Positions 10,486 to 53,092 of a stretch of DNA of 64,000 nt are shown one piece after another. The notes beneath the pieces were generated by a model. It did no database searches and was not told where the DNA came from. It was given only the letters and a program-made list of their open reading frames with translations. Position 1 is the stretch's first letter. Each line of letters starts with the position of its first letter. This DNA is from Candidatus Dojkabacteria bacterium (GTDB lineage Bacteria > Patescibacteriota > Dojkabacteria > B142 > JAFGMG01), in contig JAFGMG010000008.1 in assembly GCA_016927655.1 (NCBI GenBank), forward strand, positions 5,929 through 69,928, written 5' to 3'. Position numbers and translations under genes: made by a program.

Positions 10486-11988
10486 TCACTTAATCACGAA
10501 CACTTTGTTTTGATCAATTACTTTTTTGCCAAGCTCAAGCCTGATATCCGAGGCAGCATAAAGAGTTGCCAATAAATCTCCTGATTTGACCTGCTGCCCG
10601 GGCTGCATATGCACATAAAGCCCCGATTCCTTTATACGTGGGTTCCCAAGAGCCTTTGCTACTTCGAATATTCTTTTATTGTTGATCGATTCAAGGACTC
10701 CAGAACGAGGAGCCTTATATTCATAGACTATTCCGCCAACTTCCAGCGAATCAGAAGTAACCTCTACATCACCGCCCTGTGCTTCTACAATCTCACGGAA
10801 TTTTTTTTCTGCTTTTCCGCTATAGAGCGTTTCCTGGGCAAGATCAAACCCCCCGCCCTTTTGGGCCTTTCCAACCATTTCAAGCAAAATCCCCGCCATC
10901 TCTAATGCAGAGTTTTCAAGTTGCTGCGATTTTTGGGGATGCTGCTCATATACCCTTAAAAATTCCTTACATTCCAGAGCAGGTCCGACAGCATTCCCAT
11001 CTATTCCCATGACCTGCCTCTTATACACATTAACCTTAACCCCGAATTCCATCCCAAGCAGATCAAACATATTTTTAACTTTATCGAATTCTCCCTCATG
11101 TATCTTTGAGCTTGGACCAATCGGAACATCAAAAATAACGTGGTTTACACCTTGTGCAATTTTTTTTGCCATAATACTTGAAACAAATTTATCTATTGAT
11201 TCGATTCCGATATGTTTTTGATAACGAATGATCTCATCATCAGCCGGAGCAAGATCAAGCCCTCCGCCCCATACCATGAAAGCTCCATTTTTATCGACCA
11301 TTTCCTCGAGCTGACGTCTGTTAAAAACCATCGGCATAATAACTTCAAGCATATCCGTAGTTGCACTGGCACTAGTAACAGCTCTAGTTGAAGTATTCGG
11401 AACAATAACACCATTTGCGGCAACTATCGGGACTACAATCGGAGTTACTCCTTTTCCTGCAATTCCCCCAATCGAATGTTTATCTGCGACCGTACCCTGG
11501 AATTTCAAAATTTCTCCGGTCATGGCAAGGGCCTTTGTCATAAGGAGTATCTCTCCTTTGTCAAATCCAGGGCTGTACCCAGCCGCGATAAACACCGCAA
11601 TTAGAACTTCGTTCAACTTACCATTTGCAATATCGCGCATTATATAAAAAAAATCTTTGTAATCAAGCTTCTCACCAAGCAGTTTTTTCCTAATGGAAAC
11701 CGCTGATTCAATCTGATCTAAAAGACTAATTTCAATGACTGTTTTATCTTTTATGGCATTTTTCTGCCATATGTCTTCATAAATGCCAATCTCTCCCTCA
11801 TCTACAAGTGTCTGGGTAGTGTCTATCGTCGCTACAAGGGGCTCTGCAAGCCCGCTCCACTTTATTGAGACTCTATCCCCCACATTTACACCAACACCAT
11901 ATTCATTAGCATCAGCCTCATTGATTATGCAAATTAATTCATCTCCGGAATTGATATCAAGTTTTTTTGCAGCTAAAAAGAATTTCAT
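10486..11988 (-). CDS. AMP phosphorylase (archaeal-type DeoA / thymidine-phosphorylase family with ~90-aa N-terminal extension)
   Basis: Pyrimidine-nucleoside phosphorylase family motifs (DKHSIGGIAGKG, TSTRA) plus the N-terminal extra domain typical of AMP phosphorylase. 500 aa against about 440 aa for TP. Confidence 0.7.
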   Translation of the reverse strand: MKFFLAAKKLDINSGDELICIINEADANEYGVGVNVGDRVSIKWSGLAEPLVATIDTTQTLVDEGEIGIYEDIWQKNAIKDKTVIEISLLDQIESAVSIRKKLLGEKLDYKDFFYIMRDIANGKLNEVLIAVFIAAGYSPGFDKGEILLMTKALAMTGEILKFQGTVADKHSIGGIAGKGVTPIVVPIVAANGVIVPNTSTRAVTSASATTDMLEVIMPMVFNRRQLEEMVDKNGAFMVWGGGLDLAPADDEIIRYQKHIGIESIDKFVSSIMAKKIAQGVNHVIFDVPIGPSSKIHEGEFDKVKNMFDLLGMEFGVKVNVYKRQVMGIDGNAVGPALECKEFLRVYEQHPQKSQQLENSALEMAGILLEMVGKAQKGGGFDLAQETLYSGKAEKKFREIVEAQGGDVEVTSDSLEVGGIVYEYKAPRSGVLESINNKRIFEVAKALGNPRIKESGLYVHMQPGQQVKSGDLLATLYAASDIRLELGKKVIDQNKVFVIK

Positions 11989-11999
11989 CTGGTATCAGA

Positions 12000-12923
12000 C
12001 TAATATGCCCAAGGATAGATAGATTTCAGTGCCGGTCCCAGTTCTTCCGCTTTCAAGACACCGGCCTCGGTGATATAAGCTGTCACTAATCTTGCGGGGA
12101 TCAGCTCAAATGAAGGATTGATGATGTTTAAATTCTTCGGAGCATCCTCCCAAACTTCTTTTGCGGGACGCATTTCGATGTTAGGTTCTGAGGACTGTCC
12201 AGTTGGATCAATTTTTAGCAGTGAAGCAAGTACATAGAACTCGTCTTTTCCATCTTCTGCGGCAAGAGCGATTTGATAGCTGCCGACTTTATTTATTACC
12301 CGCCCATCCATGAAAACCTCATCAGCCCCAATCACAATCGCCTCAACTGGAAGGTATCTATCATCAACGATAAAAGACGCACTCGCCGAATCAACTATCT
12401 GCGTGGCATTTACGCCAGCATCAAGCAGTTCTTTTGCCGTTTTTCTACCCTGGTAAAGCGGTCTTGTTTCAGTCGATACAACAGTCATCTCTGGATTCTT
12501 TTTCGCTGCAGCAGCAATGCCTTCAGTTGAGGTTGAAGAATGACAATGCGTAAGTATGACTTGATATTTGGCTAGTAATTCCGCCGAAAACTGAATTATC
12601 CTCGCTTTTGACCTTCTTATAATCTCCTCAAATTGCCTAGTCGCCTCAATTATTTGAGATTTATGGTTTATATTATTTGATTTGATCTGGCCTAGAACAA
12701 ATTTCACTGCGTTTCTGGCTAATGGCTCATTTTCCCTTGCCCGGCTCAACTTATAACCTGCACTCTCCACACTTTCTAAAAGATTATCCTCCTGTATATT
12801 GGATTCTGCAGCAATTCTCATGCCTTCCATAGCAACCAAAGCAACGTTCGTGGCTCCTTGAATTTTAACGGTTTCAATATCTTTGCAAAGCTGATTTATA
12901 CGCTCTTCATAATCAGAAATCAT
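12000..12923 (-). CDS. ribose-1,5-bisphosphate isomerase (eIF-2B alpha/beta/delta-like, e2b2 family)
   Basis: eIF2B/MtnA-like fold sequence (GATNVA..., ILTHCHSSTSTEG, IVIGADEV..DGRVINKVGSYQIALAA), adjacent to the AMP phosphorylase. Confidence 0.7.
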   Translation of the reverse strand: MISDYEERINQLCKDIETVKIQGATNVALVAMEGMRIAAESNIQEDNLLESVESAGYKLSRARENEPLARNAVKFVLGQIKSNNINHKSQIIEATRQFEEIIRRSKARIIQFSAELLAKYQVILTHCHSSTSTEGIAAAAKKNPEMTVVSTETRPLYQGRKTAKELLDAGVNATQIVDSASASFIVDDRYLPVEAIVIGADEVFMDGRVINKVGSYQIALAAEDGKDEFYVLASLLKIDPTGQSSEPNIEMRPAKEVWEDAPKNLNIINPSFELIPARLVTAYITEAGVLKAEELGPALKSIYPWAY

Positions 12924-12970: not shown

Positions 12971-14302
12971 TCAAATACTAACTTCTTCCTTCCATTTTGG
13001 AATGTATATTGGGAGATCTGCATTTATCTCATCAAACTTCTGCATTCTTTGAGGCTCAGCATGTACGAGAAAGACCTTTTTTAAAGATTTCTTTTCAAAT
13101 CTATCTAACCATGCTTGCAAATCAGTTGTATCTCCATGCGCTGAGAAACCATAGAATTGCTTAATCCTTGCTCTGACCTTTACTCTTTTTTTATTAATGT
13201 AAATTTCCTCCGGTTTCAATGTAAGTTCTCTTCCCAGCGTGTCTTCCGCTTGGAATCCAACTATTGCAATGGCATTTTTTGGATCCGGAAGGTTGCTTGA
13301 TAAATGACCAAGTATTCTCCCGCCTTCGCACATACCACTTCCTGCAATAATAATTTTAGGTTCGCCCTTAGAATTCTTTAGCATCCTCCCCGGCTTCATG
13401 ATATATCGAACTTTTTCAAAATCAAATAACTCTGCTCCTTGAACATCATTAGCAAATATCGATTGTGTATATTCATTTGTCATATTTATTGCAAGTGGAC
13501 TATCTACGAATATACCTACCTTCTTCTTGATCCTATCTTCCCTATAAGCTTTTTTCAGAATGTTCAATATTTCTTGTGTTCTTTGCAACGCGAAAGCCGG
13601 GATAATCACATTTCCGTTTCTATCTATTGTTTCGTTTATATAACTGACAAACTCTGCCTCTGTCTTCTCCCTGTCTGGATGCACTATCCCACCATAAAGT
13701 GCCTCCATTAATACAAAATCTGCTTTTCGCTCAGCGGTATCAAAAGTCTCCAGGAATGGATGTTTTAATCTACCAATATCGCCCGAGAAATAACCAGTAA
13801 TACCGCTCTTATCTATTACTTTTAGACTTGCAGCTCCAAGGACATGCCCCACCTTTTCAAATTGCATCTTAACCCCATGATCCTCAAATACGTCTTTATA
13901 ACTTTTGGAATTAAATAATTGAATGGTTCGAATAGCATCCGTTGTATCATACAAGGCAACCGTCGATAGTCTTTTCTGAAGATTGTTTTCCTGTATCTTG
14001 GCAGCATCAAGCAGCAAGTGATAACTTAATGCCGAAGTTTTTTGCGTAGAATAAACCTTCCCCCTAAACCCTTCCCTGACAAGCCGGGGAAGCAACCCTA
14101 GATGGTCTAAATGAGCATGAGTTATTACGACAAAATCAATCTGTTTTGGTGCAAACTCAAACTTCTCATAATTCCGATATTCTACATCTTTACCCTGAAA
14201 CATCCCGCAATCTACAAGGAAACTTACATTACCGGTTTTTACAAGATAACAGGAACCGGTCACTGTCTCCGCTGCACCGAAGAATTTTATACTCATACTC
14301 AT
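12971..14302 (-). CDS. MBL-fold beta-CASP family RNA-metabolising hydrolase
   Basis: HAHLDH metallo-beta-lactamase motif and beta-CASP-like C-terminal region (FSAHGD). Confidence 0.7.
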   Translation of the reverse strand: MSMSIKFFGAAETVTGSCYLVKTGNVSFLVDCGMFQGKDVEYRNYEKFEFAPKQIDFVVITHAHLDHLGLLPRLVREGFRGKVYSTQKTSALSYHLLLDAAKIQENNLQKRLSTVALYDTTDAIRTIQLFNSKSYKDVFEDHGVKMQFEKVGHVLGAASLKVIDKSGITGYFSGDIGRLKHPFLETFDTAERKADFVLMEALYGGIVHPDREKTEAEFVSYINETIDRNGNVIIPAFALQRTQEILNILKKAYREDRIKKKVGIFVDSPLAINMTNEYTQSIFANDVQGAELFDFEKVRYIMKPGRMLKNSKGEPKIIIAGSGMCEGGRILGHLSSNLPDPKNAIAIVGFQAEDTLGRELTLKPEEIYINKKRVKVRARIKQFYGFSAHGDTTDLQAWLDRFEKKSLKKVFLVHAEPQRMQKFDEINADLPIYIPKWKEEVSI

Positions 14303-15780
14303 AATAATTCTTTAACAATATTTAATAATCGCTCCTTTTCATTAAGCGTTGGATCCTCAAGGACCTTTTCTAACAACTCATTTAAAATTTTCCCGATATC
14401 GGCACCTTTTATCCCCAATCCGAGCAGATCATGTCCATCAACAGCTAAATCAGAAATTTTAAAGGCACTATCCTCTGCTAGGATTTTACTTATTCTTTCT
14501 TGGAGCGCATCAATCTCAAAGTCAGTAAATGTAGACTTTGGATTCGCGGATGCATCAGCGATCCTCAATTTTATAAGATCCTCAACATTGTCCATTCCAC
14601 CCACCCTGCTGATAAACCTCCTAATAGCCGCATCACTCCAGCCTCCGACACTCTGATAATTTTCCTGTTCTTCCCGCCTCAGCTTTTCAAGATGCTCTTG
14701 ATTTATACTTTGATCATTTTGTTTTCTCCAGTCAGCAGAGGGGTAATAGAACATATGATGCCTGACAAGCAGTGCCACCCTATCGATTTCTTTTTTGGGG
14801 AATTTCATTCGCTGCATAACTTCCTGTGCAATTTTTGCTCCCTCGATATCGTGCTGGTAGAAATGCACTCCTTTTTCATCTTTGCTGTAAGTTTTTGGTT
14901 TTGCAATATCATGGAACAAGGCAACTAGTTTGATCTCATCTTGAGAGACATCCACGACTTTTAGAGTATGGTTATAGACATCATCAACGTGAAATTCCGG
15001 CTGAGTAACACCTATCCCTTCAACAAGTTCAGGTAAAAATATCTCTAGAAGTCCCCCCTTGCGAAGCAACTCAATACCAACGGATGGCTTTGGAGATTTA
15101 TAAAGAACTTTCAAAAACTCATCCCGGACACGCTCAATGGCAATATTTTTAATAATATATGAGAGCTCCCTGATAGCTTCAAACGTTCCTGTCTCAATTG
15201 TAAAATTAAGCTGACTGGCTAATCTGCAAGCCCTTACAAGTCTCAACCCATCTTCACTAAACCTCTCTTTTGGATTCCCGACAGCCCGGATCAATCCTTC
15301 CTGAAGATCATTTATCCCCCCAAACATATCAACAACAACTTCATCGAAACTCGCACCCGAATCATCAAGATTTACAAGATCAATTGCCAGGGCATTTATT
15401 GTGAAATCCCTTCTTTCCAGGTCATCTTCAAGCTTATCAGCAAATTCAACTTTTGAAGGCCACCTAGAGCTTACATAGTCACTCTCACTGCGATAGGTAG
15501 TGACCTCAACATTGTACCTTTCCGAGTCTCTGTCCTCCATTACAACTACAACTGTTCCGAATTTGGCACCAACGTCTACTGTCTTTGGGAAAATCTTTTT
15601 TAGGCCATCTGGGGCGCAATTTGTCGCTATATCAAAGTCAGACGGATCTTTCCCAAGTATCAAATCTCTCACAGAACCTCCAACTAAATATGCCTCGTAT
15701 CCATTTTCACTCAAAACATCAGCAACTCTTTTCACATAAAGGGGAATTTTTGCCTTTATTTTATCGATATTCTTTTCCAT
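14299..15780 (-). CDS. cca: CCA-adding tRNA nucleotidyltransferase with HD domain
   Basis: Pol-beta head (LVGGSVRD...DFDIAT), RDFTINA motif and an HD region (HD...). Confidence 0.8.
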   Translation of the reverse strand: MEKNIDKIKAKIPLYVKRVADVLSENGYEAYLVGGSVRDLILGKDPSDFDIATNCAPDGLKKIFPKTVDVGAKFGTVVVVMEDRDSERYNVEVTTYRSESDYVSSRWPSKVEFADKLEDDLERRDFTINALAIDLVNLDDSGASFDEVVVDMFGGINDLQEGLIRAVGNPKERFSEDGLRLVRACRLASQLNFTIETGTFEAIRELSYIIKNIAIERVRDEFLKVLYKSPKPSVGIELLRKGGLLEIFLPELVEGIGVTQPEFHVDDVYNHTLKVVDVSQDEIKLVALFHDIAKPKTYSKDEKGVHFYQHDIEGAKIAQEVMQRMKFPKKEIDRVALLVRHHMFYYPSADWRKQNDQSINQEHLEKLRREEQENYQSVGGWSDAAIRRFISRVGGMDNVEDLIKLRIADASANPKSTFTDFEIDALQERISKILAEDSAFKISDLAVDGHDLLGLGIKGADIGKILNELLEKVLEDPTLNEKERLLNIVKELL

Positions 15781-37864: not shown

Positions 37865-40204
37865 ATGAGCTTTCTAAACACATTTAAAAATCGGGAAAAA
37901 ATTCTTGGGCGAAACGAGAGAAATCTCAAATATATCCGGCCCTACAATCTCACGCGCGCAAAAAAAATTGCCGATAACAAACTGCTGACAAAAGAAATTC
38001 TCGAGAAAAATGGTATACCAACGCCAAAATTAATTGGGAAAGTCGAATCTATCCAAGATCTAAAAAATTTCGATTGGGAATCCCTGCCAAACAGCTTCGT
38101 TATTAAACCAGTACAAGGGCTTGAGGGAGCCGGGATCGAAATTTTCTACAACAGGGATAAACAAGGCAGGTGGATCATGGGAGATGGCAGGAAAGTCTCC
38201 GTTGGAGACTTAAAAGCCATGGCAATTGATATTATGGACGGGAAATATTCACTCCACAACCAAAAAGACAGTGTATTTTTTGAAGAACGGGTAAAAATGC
38301 ACAAAGTTTTCAAATATTATGCCTATAAGGGAGCTCCTGATATTAGAATTCTTGTCTTCAATAATATTCCAATAATGTCTTATCTCCGGCTTCCGACAAA
38401 AGAATCCAAAGGTAAGGGGAATTTAGCTCTTGGCGCTGTTGGAGCTGCAATCGATCTTGCCAGTGGAATAACGACAACTGCTGTACTTGGGAAAGATACC
38501 ATTGTTGAGAAAATTCCCGGAACAAACTTAAATGTTGGAGGTTTAAAAATTCCATATTGGGATGAAATACTCAAAATAGCTATAAAAGCGCATCAAGTCA
38601 CCGGACTCGGCTTTGCTGCAATCGACTTTCTAATTGACCGGGATCTCGGCCCGCAGATCATTGAACTTAACGCCAGACCAGGTCTTTCAATACAAATTGC
38701 AAATAGAGATGGTCTTAGATGGAGACTCAGAAAAGCTGCAGGGCTCAAAGTTACAAGTCCACTGAAAGGAATTAGAATTGCTAAAGATCTTTTTGGAGGG
38801 CAGCTCGAGGAACAAATCGAAAAAATTTCAGGTAAATCGATTATAAGCCATATCATGCCTGTCGAGATAATCGATCCAAATCAAAAAAAGATTCCTGCTC
38901 TTGCCTTGATTGATACAAGCAGACGTACTACAACTATAAATTATAAACTCGCGCAAAAAGCGGGTATTCCAATTTCTGAAGAAAGCTTCAAAGAAACAAG
39001 CATGTCAGATATTTCTTTTAGTCTCGCCGGTAAAATTATCAATGCCGACTGCCGTGTAGTCAAAGATAAAATCCGGGGATACAATATGCTGATTGGGCGA
39101 AGAGATCTAGGCGACTTTCTAATTGACATCAGAAGAGTCGCTACCGGGAAAGAAGATCTGCAAAAAGAAGAACTTGTTTCAGTACAAGGGCTTCAAAAGC
39201 CGGAAAATATTGATAATGCACTTGCTGAAATTGCAGAACAAATCTACATAGTTAGAAATATCAGACCGACAAACGCATCTTCAGAGAAGAAAGAATTTAA
39301 CAAAAAGAAAACTTACAGTCCGCAACTTGAGTACGAGCCGGTAAATATTGATACTGATAACCTGATATACAAACTTAGCAACCTGAATCCGGATAGAAAT
39401 ACCCAGATTGGCAAACTACTATCTGAAAAGATCGACTCTTTAAGAAAAGCAATCTATCTAATCGAGGCGATTGGGGAAGATGATAAATTTCCGCAAAGAG
39501 CCGAGAACCTTTATGGCGTGCCGGATGTTAAGATTTTTACTAAGGCTGTAGAACTTATTCGAGAAACTGACGCTATCAAACCGGATGTAAGAAAAGAGAA
39601 AGTCCTGGATAAGTCAGAAGTTGAAAAAAGAATAGCAGATCATATCAAAAAAATCGGGATTGAAGCAAAAATCGAATACATCAGAAACGGCGCCGGGAAA
39701 GCCTCGATCGGGAAAAAACAAGGGATTATTTATTTAAATCCGGATTATAAATTTACCGAAACTAAATTATTAGGGACCTTGGCACACGAAATCGACATCC
39801 ATTTGGCGAGGTCCTTTTATGGCAGACAGCGACCTTATAAAATCTATAGTTATGGGACAGCTGGATACCTAGAAGTTGAGGAAGGGCTGGCCGTAAGAAA
39901 TAAAGCCGAGGTTTTAAAAAGTCAGCAGCCAATTAGAAATGCGGCTATTATGTACGTCGCAGCGTATTTAAATCACAAAAACTCCTTTAGAGAAACATAT
40001 AACTATCTCCTCAAGCTCGGCATATCAAAAACAAATGCTTACAATTTTACAATGAGAACAAAAAAAGGCATGATAGATACCTCAAAACCAGGAGCGTTTT
40101 TGAAAGATATGCTCTACTTTTCAGGTTATCTCAAAGTAAAGGATTTAAGCAAAGAGGAGATAGGAAAACTGATAAAAAGCGGAAAGACTTCTACAGTTAT
40201 TTAA
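37865..40204 (+). CDS. three-domain fusion: RimK-like ATP-grasp amidoligase + retropepsin-like (DUF785-type) domain + DUF1704/QEGLA MATCAP-like metallopeptidase
   Basis: ATP-grasp motifs FVIKPVQGLEGAGIEI, DIRILVFN and IELNARPG in the first ~310 aa. Mid-domain PALALIDTSRRT reads as a retropepsin-like D-T/S-G motif with G replaced by S. C-terminal LAHEIDIH (HExxxH) followed about 25 aa later by EEGLA. Confidence 0.65.
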   Translation: MSFLNTFKNREKILGRNERNLKYIRPYNLTRAKKIADNKLLTKEILEKNGIPTPKLIGKVESIQDLKNFDWESLPNSFVIKPVQGLEGAGIEIFYNRDKQGRWIMGDGRKVSVGDLKAMAIDIMDGKYSLHNQKDSVFFEERVKMHKVFKYYAYKGAPDIRILVFNNIPIMSYLRLPTKESKGKGNLALGAVGAAIDLASGITTTAVLGKDTIVEKIPGTNLNVGGLKIPYWDEILKIAIKAHQVTGLGFAAIDFLIDRDLGPQIIELNARPGLSIQIANRDGLRWRLRKAAGLKVTSPLKGIRIAKDLFGGQLEEQIEKISGKSIISHIMPVEIIDPNQKKIPALALIDTSRRTTTINYKLAQKAGIPISEESFKETSMSDISFSLAGKIINADCRVVKDKIRGYNMLIGRRDLGDFLIDIRRVATGKEDLQKEELVSVQGLQKPENIDNALAEIAEQIYIVRNIRPTNASSEKKEFNKKKTYSPQLEYEPVNIDTDNLIYKLSNLNPDRNTQIGKLLSEKIDSLRKAIYLIEAIGEDDKFPQRAENLYGVPDVKIFTKAVELIRETDAIKPDVRKEKVLDKSEVEKRIADHIKKIGIEAKIEYIRNGAGKASIGKKQGIIYLNPDYKFTETKLLGTLAHEIDIHLARSFYGRQRPYKIYSYGTAGYLEVEEGLAVRNKAEVLKSQQPIRNAAIMYVAAYLNHKNSFRETYNYLLKLGISKTNAYNFTMRTKKGMIDTSKPGAFLKDMLYFSGYLKVKDLSKEEIGKLIKSGKTSTVI

Positions 40205-49882: not shown

Positions 49883-52726
49883 TTACTCCCCGACAACATA
49901 ATTAATCAGACGGTCTTTGACATATATTACACGTATTATAGCCTTTCCAGCAAGATATTTCCCGATTTTTTCAGATTTTTTTGCTTCTATTTCAACCTCA
50001 GACTGCTCACTTTCTGCCGGCATTTCTAGATTATCTCGCAATTTCCCGTTAACTTGAACGGCAATAGTGACCATTTTGTCTTTTGCCATGTTTTCATCAT
50101 ATACAGGCCACTTTTCTAAATGAATCGAAGTTTCATTTCCAAGTTCTTGCCACAGTTCTTCAGTAATAAATGGTGCAAATGGCGCAAGAACTAAAAGGAA
50201 CTTTTCCCATACTTTTTGGTCCAGCTGTTCAACATTTTGCGCATAATTCACAAACTCCATCATCTTGGCGATCGCGGTATTAAATGAAAGCGTCTCAAGG
50301 TCTTGACCAACTTTCTTGATCAATTTATTGATTTCTACCTGTTGGGTAGTTTCAGGTTTTTCCTCCCCGACCTTATCCTTTAGACCCCAGACTTTGCCCA
50401 AAAACCTTTTAATTCCCAGAACTCCTTTCGTCGACCATGGCTTATCATCAGAAAGTGGCCCCATGAACATCTCGTACATCCTCAATGTGTCTGCACCGTG
50501 GCTCTCTACAACGTCAGTTGGATTGATGACATTACCCCATCTTTTACTCATTTTGCGGCCATCTTCACCAAGTATCAATCCCTGATGTCTATGAACTTTA
50601 AAAGGCTCATCGAAATCAATATATCCTGCGTCATACAACACTTTTGTGAAAAATCTGGAGTACAGCAAATGCCCGTTTACATGTTCCGGTCCGCCAAGGT
50701 AAAAATCAACCGGCATCCACTTTTTCAAAGCTTCTGGGGATGCGAATTGCTTGTCATTTTTCGGATCCAAATAGCGGTAGTAGTACCAGCTCGAGCACAT
50801 GAAAGTGTCCAGGGTATCGACTTCTCTTCTCCAGCCCTTTCCGTATTTTTCTTCGACCCCTTCTTGAAAAGATTTGGAATATGTCAAAGGTGATTGTCCG
50901 GTAGGTTTGAAATCTACGTCATCAGGCAATACAACAGGGAGATCTTTTTCGTCCACAGGATGTAAATTCCCTTCTGGGTCATAAACCATCGGAATCGGCG
51001 CACCCCAGAATCTCTGCCTGCTCACTGACCAGTCGCGTAGCTTATAGGTCACTTTTGCCTCTCCAATACCTTTCTCCTCCAGCCATTTCACGACTGCCTC
51101 TTTTGCCTCTTCCGATTTCAATCCATCAAACTGGCCCGAATTGACGACTCTTCCATATCCTGAAAAAGTTTCCGCTCCATACAGATATCTCCTAAGACCA
51201 ATAATATTTTCTTCATGTGAGCATTTTTTCAAAAATTCTTCCGGACTCATCCAAACAGCATCCTGAATATCTTTTTCATCCTCATTTACATCAATAGGCT
51301 CATCTTCCAATAATTCCAATAGAACCGGCTGATTCAACCTATGCCTATATACGTTTTTATGATCTGCAAAAAAGTGCGATTCTATTTCACCTCCAAGAGT
51401 TTTGACTGCTTTGCATTTATATCCAGTTTCTTCCAAGACTTCTCTTTCAGCAGCGGCAAGTAAATCCTCCTCATCATCAATTCCACCTATAACTGGTGAA
51501 ACCCAGTTATTCTTCTTCCAATTGACGGCCAATACCTTCCCGTCCGATTCCCTTTGCACGACAGCAGATATTGTTTTTCGGAATTCTTCATCTTTCCTTT
51601 CTTTTCCGAATATTGGTATTACAACTTCTTTGATTTCCAGCTTGTATTTTTTTGCAAAATCCATATCTCTCTGGTCATGGGCGGGAACTGCCATTATTGC
51701 CCCAGTACCATAATCAGTCAGGACATAATCGGCAATCCAAATTGGAATATTTTTCTCTGTGGCTGGGTTGATTGCATATGCTCCGGTAAATACCCCTGAC
51801 TTACTTTTTGTCATATCAGTTCTCTCAATTTCTGTCTTTTTCTTCGCATCCTCGACATATTTTTCGACTTCTCCCTTTTGCTCTTCAGTTGTAATTTGCT
51901 TTACCAATTCATGTTCCGGCGCAAGGACCATATATGTAGCTCCAAAAATAGTATCAGGTCTGGTCGTAAACACCTTTAAGGTCTTATCTGAATCAACGAT
52001 TTCGAACCTTATCTGTGCCCCTTCACTTCTCCCAATCCAATCCCTCTGCCTTTTAACTGTCTCTTTTGGCCAGTCGACCTTGTCCAGATCTTTTGCCAAT
52101 CGATCTGCGTATTCTGTGATTTTCAAATACCACTGCTCCATCATTTTATGTTCAACTGGAGTATCGCACCTCTCGCACACCTCCTGCCCATCTTTGTCTA
52201 CCACCTGCTCGTTTGCAAGAACTGTCTTGCAGCTTGGACACCAGTTTACTTTCTGATTTTTTCTATATGCCAAGCCTTGATTGTACATAAGCAGGAAGAA
52301 CCACTGCGTCCATTTGTAGTAGTCGGGATTGTGGGATCCAACTTCACGGTCCCAATCATATGAAGCTCCAATCTTAACTAGTTGACTTTTGTAATTTTCA
52401 ATAGCCTTATCAGTATTTATCCTTGGGTGAATATTTGTCTTTACTGCATAGTTTTCTGCCGGTAAACCAAAGGCATCCCATCCCATAACCTGGAGAACTT
52501 TCTCACCTTTCATTCTTTTAAATCTTGCCAAGATATCACACCCAACATATATTTCCGTATGCCCAACGTGCAGACCAGATCCCGATGGATAAGGAAGCTG
52601 CGGCAGGATGTAATATTTGTTTTCATGCGTGGCATCTTCAGGAGTTTTGTAAATTCCTGTCTCTGCCCATTTTTTGATCCATTTTGGCTCGATTGCCTTT
52701 GGATCGTATTGTGCTTTGCTGTCCAT
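49883..52726 (-). CDS. leuS: leucyl-tRNA synthetase carrying an inserted Nudix-hydrolase-like domain
   Basis: HIGH motif (HVGH), editing-domain TTRPDT, AHDQRD, KMSKR. The insertion between AHDQRD...KYKLEIK and SGQFDGL carries the perfect Nudix box G x5 E x7 REVLEETGY. Confidence 0.9.
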   Translation of the reverse strand: MDSKAQYDPKAIEPKWIKKWAETGIYKTPEDATHENKYYILPQLPYPSGSGLHVGHTEIYVGCDILARFKRMKGEKVLQVMGWDAFGLPAENYAVKTNIHPRINTDKAIENYKSQLVKIGASYDWDREVGSHNPDYYKWTQWFFLLMYNQGLAYRKNQKVNWCPSCKTVLANEQVVDKDGQEVCERCDTPVEHKMMEQWYLKITEYADRLAKDLDKVDWPKETVKRQRDWIGRSEGAQIRFEIVDSDKTLKVFTTRPDTIFGATYMVLAPEHELVKQITTEEQKGEVEKYVEDAKKKTEIERTDMTKSKSGVFTGAYAINPATEKNIPIWIADYVLTDYGTGAIMAVPAHDQRDMDFAKKYKLEIKEVVIPIFGKERKDEEFRKTISAVVQRESDGKVLAVNWKKNNWVSPVIGGIDDEEDLLAAAEREVLEETGYKCKAVKTLGGEIESHFFADHKNVYRHRLNQPVLLELLEDEPIDVNEDEKDIQDAVWMSPEEFLKKCSHEENIIGLRRYLYGAETFSGYGRVVNSGQFDGLKSEEAKEAVVKWLEEKGIGEAKVTYKLRDWSVSRQRFWGAPIPMVYDPEGNLHPVDEKDLPVVLPDDVDFKPTGQSPLTYSKSFQEGVEEKYGKGWRREVDTLDTFMCSSWYYYRYLDPKNDKQFASPEALKKWMPVDFYLGGPEHVNGHLLYSRFFTKVLYDAGYIDFDEPFKVHRHQGLILGEDGRKMSKRWGNVINPTDVVESHGADTLRMYEMFMGPLSDDKPWSTKGVLGIKRFLGKVWGLKDKVGEEKPETTQQVEINKLIKKVGQDLETLSFNTAIAKMMEFVNYAQNVEQLDQKVWEKFLLVLAPFAPFITEELWQELGNETSIHLEKWPVYDENMAKDKMVTIAVQVNGKLRDNLEMPAESEQSEVEIEAKKSEKIGKYLAGKAIIRVIYVKDRLINYVVGE

Positions 52727-52739
52727 AGATTTGTACTAA

Positions 52740-53035
52740 TAAACAAAAAAAGTCCCTGCCAAACTACATCATTACGAAATATAGTTTAACAGGGACCTTC
52801 AATTAACTAAAGGTGGTACCACCCATTTTCCTGTAAATGTCTTTCAATTCCTCATTCACAGCTCATTTTAAGCATTTTAACGGTTGCAACTCGGATGGTT
52901 CTAATCGTGCGATTCAGAAGACAATCTCACTAATCGCACTTTCTTCCATCATTTCGCCTATTTACTAGGCACAAAGGAGTGAGTATAAGCTGTTATCGTC
53001 ATCAAAAAAGACTCAAGCCGCCCCTTTGATTAGTT
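52740..53035 (-). promoter_or_regulatory. T-box riboswitch leader of leuS
   Basis: On the minus strand, an extended -10 (TGATATAAT), then a stem-I-like hairpin (GTGCGATT...AATCGCAC) with a K-turn-like GATGG/CCATC base, an AGAAAG-type internal loop and an AGUGAGA distal loop. T-box sequence AAUGGGUGGUACCACC gives antiterminator GGG[UGGUACC]ACC...GGUCCC. Terminator GGUCCCUG...CAGGGAC-U7 sits 17 nt before the leuS ATG. Confidence 0.6.
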
Positions 53036-53092
53036 AGGATAATTATATCAGATAGCCAAATGATACTAAACAAAATATGTCAACTAATTAAA

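Follow-up and report, generated by a model that had tools for sequence, protein, structure and literature searches.

A reduced T-box riboswitch candidate with an intrinsic terminator precedes leuS in a Dojkabacteria genome

What does the intergenic gap upstream of the leucyl-tRNA synthetase gene (leuS) of a Dojkabacteria bacterium contain, and how might it control that gene? Dojkabacteria, formerly WS6, is a candidate phylum of the Candidate Phyla Radiation (CPR), and in the 64-kb stretch analyzed here (hereafter the window) a 366-nt gap on the minus strand separates a 191-aa open reading frame (ORF; 53668-53093) from a 947-aa ORF (52726-49883). All of the leader elements described below lie in this gap, running from 53050 to 52745 on the minus strand, 5' of leuS. 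The initial annotation of this locus had proposed a canonical T-box riboswitch leader upstream of leuS in a CPR-like genome, and both the gene and the host were named correctly. The downstream gene (49883-52726, minus strand, 947 aa) has Pfam matches to the class I synthetase core (tRNA-synt_1), the LeuRS editing domain, the anticodon-binding domain (Anticodon_1) and NUDIX; its product is 100% identical to the NCBI protein leucine--tRNA ligase of Candidatus Dojkabacteria bacterium, and the window is compact, has a GC content of 39.5% and a gene content typical of CPR. The predicted fold of the whole leader is better than those of its shuffled versions (z = -5.4, with 0 of 100 shuffles as good). 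We conclude, with a probability of roughly 75%, that the leader is a functional T-box riboswitch of reduced structure, which acts on leuS through transcription attenuation.

The comparative evidence comes from leuS loci of two sources, GTDB genomes together with JGI metagenomes (160 loci, ~40 of them estimated to be CPR), and the contigs of the closest LeuS homologs in a collection of 5.8 billion proteins. Four further distinct T-box leaders were found 5' of leuS, at L096, L161, L162 (L163 carries the same leader sequence) and L171; L171 belongs to an NCBI Dojkabacteria metagenome-assembled genome, and the relatives are metagenomic lineages. On the contigs of the closest LeuS homologs, T-boxes are present at P0002, P0003 and P0043. 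Pairwise identity among the five LeuS proteins is only 56-71%, and their leaders can therefore be treated as independent samples. Among the CPR-like relatives in the 160 fetched loci (Magasanikbacteria, Saccharibacteria and others), only L096 has a T-box, while Bacillota-type leuS loci have T-boxes, three of which (L028, L033 and L041) served as controls. This pattern of occurrence indicates that the element is confined to a patchy subclade. All five leaders share a common order of elements: a YTGATATAAT promoter, a short first hairpin, a second hairpin with a covarying 5-bp closing helix and an AAGA/(G/U)UAGAA internal loop, a 4-bp hairpin (CGGN/NCCG) followed by CCGUUA, a variable purine-flanked hairpin and, finally, the T-box, antiterminator and terminator. 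At L162 (2462-2998; also at L163) the T-box precedes a 178-aa ORF that has no Pfam match and abuts leuS, and, judging from this arrangement, the 178-aa protein appears to be co-regulated with LeuS by tRNA-Leu. This ORF shows no homology to the 191-aa ORF that precedes the leader in the window.

The leader opens with an extended -10 promoter, TGATATAAT, read from the sequence at 53042-53050 on the minus strand. The promoter had been predicted in the initial annotation; it lies just beyond the interval annotated then, and it is kept in all five leaders, with YTGATATAAT at the equivalent place in L096, L161, L162 and L171. Transcription would start at about position 53035. The sequence TTGACA at 53083-53078 was considered as a -35 element and rejected, as it lies 27 nt upstream of TGATATAAT and is too distant. 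At the other end of the leader, the T-box sequence AAUGGGUGGUACCACC (52812-52827, minus strand) was identified both by reading and by alignment to the Rfam T-box model RF00230. Its exact core, GGGTGGTACC, occurs once in the whole 64 kb, and the window contains no second TGGNACC in a T-box-like context and no other T-box core. Together with the antiterminator it occupies 52792-52827 on the minus strand, where helix A1 pairs GGG (52824-52822) with CCC (52794-52792), a 7-nt bulge reads UGGUACC (52821-52815), and helix A2 pairs ACCUU with AAGGU. The bulge is identical in the five leaders, and A1 and A2 form pairs in 100% of cells across them, with compensatory changes. Upstream of the T-box, the minimum free energy (MFE) fold and the Rfam alignment both place Stem III (CUGUGAAUG/CAUUUACAG, followed by GAAAA) at 52831-52861 on the minus strand. 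An RRRNG-Stem III-AA arrangement is a described T-box motif (PMC7583486); by eye, it is exact in the four relatives and only approximate in its 5' part in the window. The palindrome GGUGGUACCACC (52823-52812, minus strand) within the T-box can form a small hairpin of its own in the OFF conformer, occluding the UGGU bulge, and such a hairpin is seen in the MFE folds of the window, L161, L162 and L171; the palindrome is a side effect of A2 beginning with ACC.

The antiterminator cannot coexist with the helix that follows it. A terminator scan identified an intrinsic terminator at 52745-52797 on the minus strand, composed of a 20-bp hairpin (52797-52751) and a run of seven U residues (52751-52745) that ends 18 nt ahead of the ATG at 52726. 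The 5' arm of this hairpin, GGUCCCUG, re-uses the 3' strand of the antiterminator, and GGUCCC is common to both structures. In constrained folds, the terminator conformer of the window has an energy of -36.6 kcal/mol and the antiterminator alone has -7.4 kcal/mol, and the mutually exclusive helices and U7 of the initial annotation are thus confirmed. The corresponding values are -32.6 and -5.9 kcal/mol for L096, -50.5 and -3.3 kcal/mol for L161, -28.2 and -23.3 kcal/mol for L162 (which has a long insertion in A2), and -34.8 and -3.9 kcal/mol for L171. In each leader the terminator is more stable than the antiterminator, consistent with the default-OFF logic of T-boxes.

Which hairpin decodes the tRNA is a question on which the initial annotation and our analysis differ. 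The earlier model took the hairpin at 52950-52894 as Stem I of a canonical T-box, with a K-turn-like base, an AGAAAG specifier loop, an AGUGAGA distal loop and a UUA specifier (52904-52902) read by tRNA-Leu(UAA). In its favor, the Rfam alignment of the window puts its Stem I on this hairpin, and UUA is a Leu codon that is commoner in the window (16.8% of Leu codons) than CUC. The hairpin does exist (52894-52950, minus strand), with a lower helix pairing GAUGG (52950-52946) with CCAUC (52898-52894), an upper helix GUGCGAUU/AAUCGCAC, and between them an internal loop composed of AAGAAA on the 5' side and GAUUAGAA (52906-52899) on the 3' side. This loop, however, is of the S-turn type: the strand (G/U)UAGAA opposite AAGA is conserved as a unit, reading UUAGAA (52904-52899) in the window, such that the proposed UUA is its first three bases. 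The strand matches the conserved GUAGA(A) of the Stem II S-turn in described T-boxes, in which G67 can be U (PMC7583486), and at the homologous position three of the four relatives have GUA, which is not a Leu codon. For L096, which scores higher (63.8 bits), Rfam placed the homologous hairpin on Stem II and CGGAGAAGUCCGUUA on the F-box of Stem IIA/B, with most of Stem I deleted. S-turn strand conservation and the Rfam alignment of L096 together identify the hairpin at 52950-52894 as Stem II rather than Stem I. Its lower helix covaries in the relatives (GGCGG/CCGUC, GGUGG/CCACC, GAUUG/CAAUC and GGCGG/CUGCC), with pairs in 100% of cells and three of the five pairs changed on both sides. Neither the AGUGAGA loop (L096 has UUUU on a 3-bp stem) nor the K-turn-like base is conserved in any relative, the leaders contain no AGAGA or GGUNGGUG platform motifs, and every leader has CUC (CUC-A in four) at the proper place in a hairpin further upstream. 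We therefore consider the earlier assignment of Stem I and its specifier very improbable.

Immediately downstream of Stem II lies the Stem IIA/B pseudoknot with its F-box, CGAGUUGCAACCGUUAAAAUGC (52872-52893, minus strand), composed of the IIA helix CG..CG, the F-box CCGUUA (52883-52878), which aligns to the CCGUUA of the Rfam model, and the IIB helix GCA (52887-52885)/UGC (52874-52872). IIB covaries at a fixed spacing of CCG-N6, reading GCA/UGC in the window, AAG/CUU in L096 and GAC/GUC in L161; among the five leaders compared, it is not evident in L162 or L171.

The hairpin upstream of Stem II has the properties of a truncated Stem I (52973-53027, minus strand). In the window its lower helix pairs AAAGGGG (53027-53021) with CUCCUUU (52979-52973) and, after a joiner C, its upper helix pairs GGCU (53019-53016) with AGCU (52991-52988) around a 24-nt apical loop; the internal loop on the 3' side reads UAUA-CUC-A. 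The same plan recurs in L096 (AUCGGGG, joiner C, AGCU, loop UGAAAUAAU, AGCC, UAGA-CUC-A, CUCCGAG), L161 (AGGGGAG, joiner C, AGCU, loop UGCAAUAAC, AGCU, UAUA-CUC-A, CUCCCUU) and L162 (AUCGGGG, joiner A, AGCU, loop UGAAAUAAU, AGUU, UAUA-CUC-A, CUCCGGA), and L171 has a 7-bp stem only (UCUUCAG/CUGAAGA), with no joiner, upper helix or internal loop and with a 7-nt apical loop, AGACUCC. Stem I is thus 55 nt long in the window, 40 nt in three relatives and 21 nt in L171, compared with 94 nt in the Bacillota controls. Five of the seven pairs of the lower helix change on both sides across the five leaders. CUC (52983-52981, minus strand, with a 3' A at 52980) does not vary among the five leaders, precedes an A in four of them, and is located at the 3' end of the loop, abutting the closing helix, which is the canonical position of a specifier; the Bacillota controls carry the same CUC, in the context GAA-CUC-G/C. 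UUA and the other reading frames of ACUCACUCC were ruled out as specifier by position and conservation. CUC is the rarest Leu codon in the window (8.6%), and its rarity fits the 'C rule' of T-boxes, which has been ascribed to contacts of Stem II with G34 of the tRNA (PMC7583486). On this positional and comparative evidence the specifier is most likely CUC, with tRNA-Leu(GAG) as the predicted reader.

Three further observations concern the surroundings of Stem I. The apical loop of the miniature Stem I is kept as UG(A/C)AAUAA(U/C) in L096 (2737-2745), L161 (1916-1924) and L162 (2121-2129), and in the window (53012-52992, minus strand) the same loop ends (UGA...GAUAAC) flank a 15-nt insertion; a loop kept in this way may well have a function, for instance in a tertiary contact. 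Base pairing is also possible, in three relatives, between the sequence flanking Stem I on its 5' side and a segment just before Stem II (GGCGCU/AGCGCU at 2717-2722/2784-2789 in L096, GACG/CGUU at 1897-1900/1981-1984 in L161, and CCUG/CAGG at 2102-2105/2164-2167 in L162), so that Stem I and the linker would lie inside a three-way junction, which may substitute for the K-turn that is missing here; this pairing is impossible in the window and L171. Between Stem I and Stem II of the window, the MFE fold contains a linker hairpin, GCCUA-GUAAA-UAGGC (52956-52970, minus strand). Linker hairpins of other sequence and length occur in L096 and L161 and none occurs in L162 or L171, such that the hairpin is not a conserved element, and it was rejected as a substitute elbow contact because it is variable and missing from L162 and L171.

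A Stem I of this length raises the possibility that the leader is a translational or dual T-box, controlling mainly ribosome access, in which the apparent terminator is a sequestrator as in actinobacterial ileS leaders. Descriptions of a truncated Stem I have so far concerned translational T-boxes (PMC7583486; PMC7778990), the large insertions in Stem III and helix A2 of L161 and L162 are of a kind noted for translational T-boxes (PMC7583486), and the window hairpin ends just 18 nt before the ATG. In every leader, however, a GC-based hairpin is followed directly by a run of five to seven U residues, and the distance from this run to the start codon ranges from 18 to ~250 nt, so the hairpin would be unable to sequester the initiation region in most of them. 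There is, moreover, no Shine-Dalgarno (SD) sequence upstream of the window leuS, and SD-like cores within -20 to -4 of the start codon are rare, occurring in only 7 of the 47 window genes. The U-runs, the start distances and the scarcity of SD sequences make transcription attenuation much more likely than SD sequestration, and we regard translational or dual control as improbable.

The proposed helices were evaluated with two alignments and a covariance model. RNAalifold, applied to an uncurated MAFFT alignment of four decoding modules, recovered both Stem I helices, the lower helix of Stem II and IIA, and left CUCA unpaired. In a hand-curated skeleton alignment of the five leaders, assembled from the actual sequences by taking their conserved joiners and helix strands of equal length in order, standard pairs occupy 93.8% of 130 cells, and both partners vary in 15 of the 26 pairs. 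The observed values were not reached in any of 500 column shuffles, and partners slid by 1-3 columns paired at 34-55%. R1, a covariance model trained on the decoding modules of four leaders, recognized nothing beyond those four when run against 175 loci and the window.

Comparison with the curated T-box family shows how far the leader departs from known members. In scans with Rfam 15, the whole window yielded only tRNAs, and no T-box match, at the gathering threshold, which is 93 bits for RF00230. In a permissive scan over 601 nt, the model aligned end to end over 52961-52788, with 70 Stem I model positions replaced by 18 nt and Stem II deleted. The three Bacillota controls scored 138.5, 120.6 and 116.8 bits, and the relatives scored 63.8 (L096), 32.6 and 30.3 bits, with no listing of L161 at E <= 0.01. 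None of the five leaders has the AGAGA bulge or the GGUNGGUGNNAG loop. The AGAGA bulge and the GGU(U)GGUGNNAG distal loop, which build the elbow-docking double T-loop platform, are missing from all five and present in all three controls, each with a 94-nt Stem I. With a sub-threshold score and a short Stem I that lacks the elbow platform, 'canonical' is not a term that fits this leader, and its identity as a T-box is drawn instead from the sub-threshold full-length alignment together with the comparative evidence from four other lineages.

These differences could also mark a decaying, non-functional remnant, for example a T-box acquired from a Firmicute in which Stem I has degraded and leuS is expressed by leaky termination. 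The low Rfam score, the patchy occurrence (5 of 13 sampled close leuS loci and 0 of ~40 other CPR loci) and the progressive shortening of Stem I, down to the 21 nt of L171, would all fit such decay. Against it, the reduced architecture, promoter, CUC-A, S-turn, F-box, T-box bulge and terminator persist over LeuS identities of 56-71%, the helices are maintained by compensatory changes, and an eroding leader with an intact -37 kcal/mol terminator before an essential single-copy synthetase gene would be strongly deleterious. We consider decay quite improbable, less so than the earlier Stem I model and more so than translational control.

Several observations nevertheless weigh against a functional, transcriptional T-box. 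The window leader scores 33.3 bits in the permissive scan (E = 1.1e-5 for the 601-nt search), compared with the gathering score of 93 bits, and by the refuting condition that the initial annotation set itself, the lack of a covariance-model match above threshold, its claim would fail. The pair counts rest on a skeleton that was fitted to the structure by hand and on five sequences. With filters off, R1 scores L171 at 10.9 bits, aligning Stem II and IIA correctly and misplacing Stem I; L171 is accordingly a more diverged relative and does not confirm Stem I independently, and its CUC is, furthermore, followed by C instead of a purine. No T-box is present at eight equally close leuS loci (P0004, P0010, P0016, P0025, P0026, P0037, P0038 and P0058), which leaves five leaders in all. 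No K-turn is evident at the base of Stem I, where a conserved GA/GA was sought by eye in the five leaders; GA dinucleotides occur there in L096 and L162 only, and we therefore do not claim one. Neither the window, with its five tRNA genes (two Thr, one Trp, one Arg and one Ala), nor the fetched related loci contain a tRNA-Leu gene. Finally, transcriptional T-boxes are held to need a long Stem I platform for fast capture of tRNA (PMC7583486), and that platform is absent here.

From the conserved elements we infer that the leader binds a tRNA, that this tRNA is tRNA-Leu(GAG), and that regulation is exerted on transcription. In the mechanism that we propose, transcription would start from the extended -10 promoter, and the nascent leader would form a miniature Stem I that displays CUC and its 3' adenosine and captures uncharged tRNA-Leu(GAG). 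The S-turn of Stem II, positioned by the IIA/B pseudoknot, would clamp the codon-anticodon helix and compensate for the truncated Stem I, a step drawn by analogy with actinobacterial ileS T-boxes, which also lack an elbow platform. If the tRNA is uncharged, its 3'-ACCA would pair with UGGU of the 7-nt bulge and stabilize the weak antiterminator (~-7 kcal/mol) flanked by Stem III, allowing read-through into leuS; if it is charged or absent, the stronger terminator (~-37 kcal/mol) and U7 would form, and transcription would stop. A discriminator A73 is typical of bacterial tRNA-Leu. The T-box sequence noted in the initial annotation is present, its UGGU bulge suits a tRNA whose discriminator is A, and UGGU likewise occurs in the Bacillota leuS controls. 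The window has a gene for a CCA-adding enzyme at 14299-15780, and, of the five window tRNA genes, Thr-GGU and Ala-GGC encode the 3' CCA and the other three do not.

The leader shares features with three described groups of T-boxes. Like the Bacillota leuS T-boxes (RF00230; L028, L033 and L041), it precedes leuS and has a CUC specifier, a UGGUACC bulge with U opposite the discriminator A, a Stem II S-turn, the F-box CCGUUA, Stem III and an antiterminator that overlaps the terminator; it differs from them in having a Stem I of 21-55 nt rather than ~94 nt, no AG bulge/distal-loop platform, no evident K-turn, an additional variable hairpin that separates Stem I from Stem II in three of the five, and scores of 30-64 rather than 117-139 bits. 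Actinobacterial ileS T-boxes with a short or 'ultrashort' Stem I, which rely on Stem II and act on translation (PMC7583486; PMC11297988) and for which structures from M. tuberculosis and N. farcinica are available (6UFG and 6UFM, as summarized in PMC7583486), likewise lack the elbow platform, present the specifier at the 3' end of a small loop (apical in L171), use the GUAGA purine strand of the Stem II S-turn together with IIA/B, and have Stem III or A2 insertions in some members. The leaders described here differ from that group in ending in a terminator and U-run instead of an SD sequestrator, in controlling leuS through CUC instead of ileS through AUC, and in belonging to CPR instead of Actinobacteria. 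They thus combine the truncated Stem I, Stem II and IIA/B of class II (translational, truncated-Stem-I) T-boxes with a terminator, in place of the SD-sequestering platform without a terminator that also characterizes that class. The glyQS T-boxes of B. subtilis and G. kaustophilus, by contrast, share transcriptional attenuation and the same discriminator module and represent the reverse architecture, in that they keep a long Stem I and lack Stem II and IIA/B.

As far as we could establish, the pairing of an intrinsic terminator with a truncated Stem I, on leuS and in CPR, is new, since short Stem I has been tied to translational T-boxes, and since TBDB, in which transcriptional T-boxes have a longer Stem I, searched its class II model only in Actinobacteria (PMC7778990). 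No report of T-boxes in CPR, Patescibacteria, Saccharibacteria or Parcubacteria was found in 7.7 million open-access papers or in bioRxiv. A 2015 study by Sherwood et al. reportedly predicted 'many', not all, short-Stem-I leaders to be translational, and a few terminator-type examples may therefore exist already.

Other features of LeuS and of the window were noted alongside the leader. A complete NUDIX domain (PF00293, E = 1.4e-13; Nudix box GGIDDEEDLLAAAEREVLEETGY) is located within LeuS at residues 383-501 (51224-51580, minus strand), just after the editing domain, and many CPR LeuS homologs (labelled Magasanikbacteria, Dojkabacteria and Nomurabacteria) have NUDIX and/or alpha/beta-hydrolase domains (PF06821, PF00561, PF12697) at the same site, bringing the proteins to 940-1200 aa. 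At 10486-12923 on the minus strand, neighboring genes resemble AMP or thymidine phosphorylase (PF00591, PF07831, PF02885) and ribose-1,5-bisphosphate isomerase (IF-2B family, PF01008), which catalyze steps one and two of a nucleoside salvage pathway typical of CPR and archaea. A 779-aa fusion encoded at 37865-40204 on the plus strand pairs a sugar-transfer-associated ATP-grasp domain (PF14397) with a MATCAP-like carboxypeptidase domain (PF08014), an unusual combination.

The family to which the leader belongs and its logic are well known; the host phylum is new for a T-box regulator, and the architecture challenges a stated rule of the field. Whether this Dojkabacteria (CPR) lineage has a distinct T-box class, using co-transcriptional, tRNA-dependent antitermination without contact between Stem I and the tRNA elbow, is a proposition that we hold to be evenly balanced. 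If true, it would contradict the view that transcriptional T-boxes require the long Stem I platform and that only translational ones can do without it. Until now a truncated Stem I was associated with slow, reversible switches of translation, and here it is joined to a one-shot terminator that, if it works, tests the kinetic argument for elbow docking. The decoding module, at ~21-55 nt, would be a naturally minimal one, of use for engineering. For genome annotation, the specifier is corrected to CUC, with tRNA-Leu(GAG) as the predicted reader. The curated Rfam threshold misses the class entirely, which indicates that surveys based on RF00230 undercount T-boxes in uncultured phyla, and, if our interpretation is true, T-box regulation extends to the Candidate Phyla Radiation, where standard models miss it.

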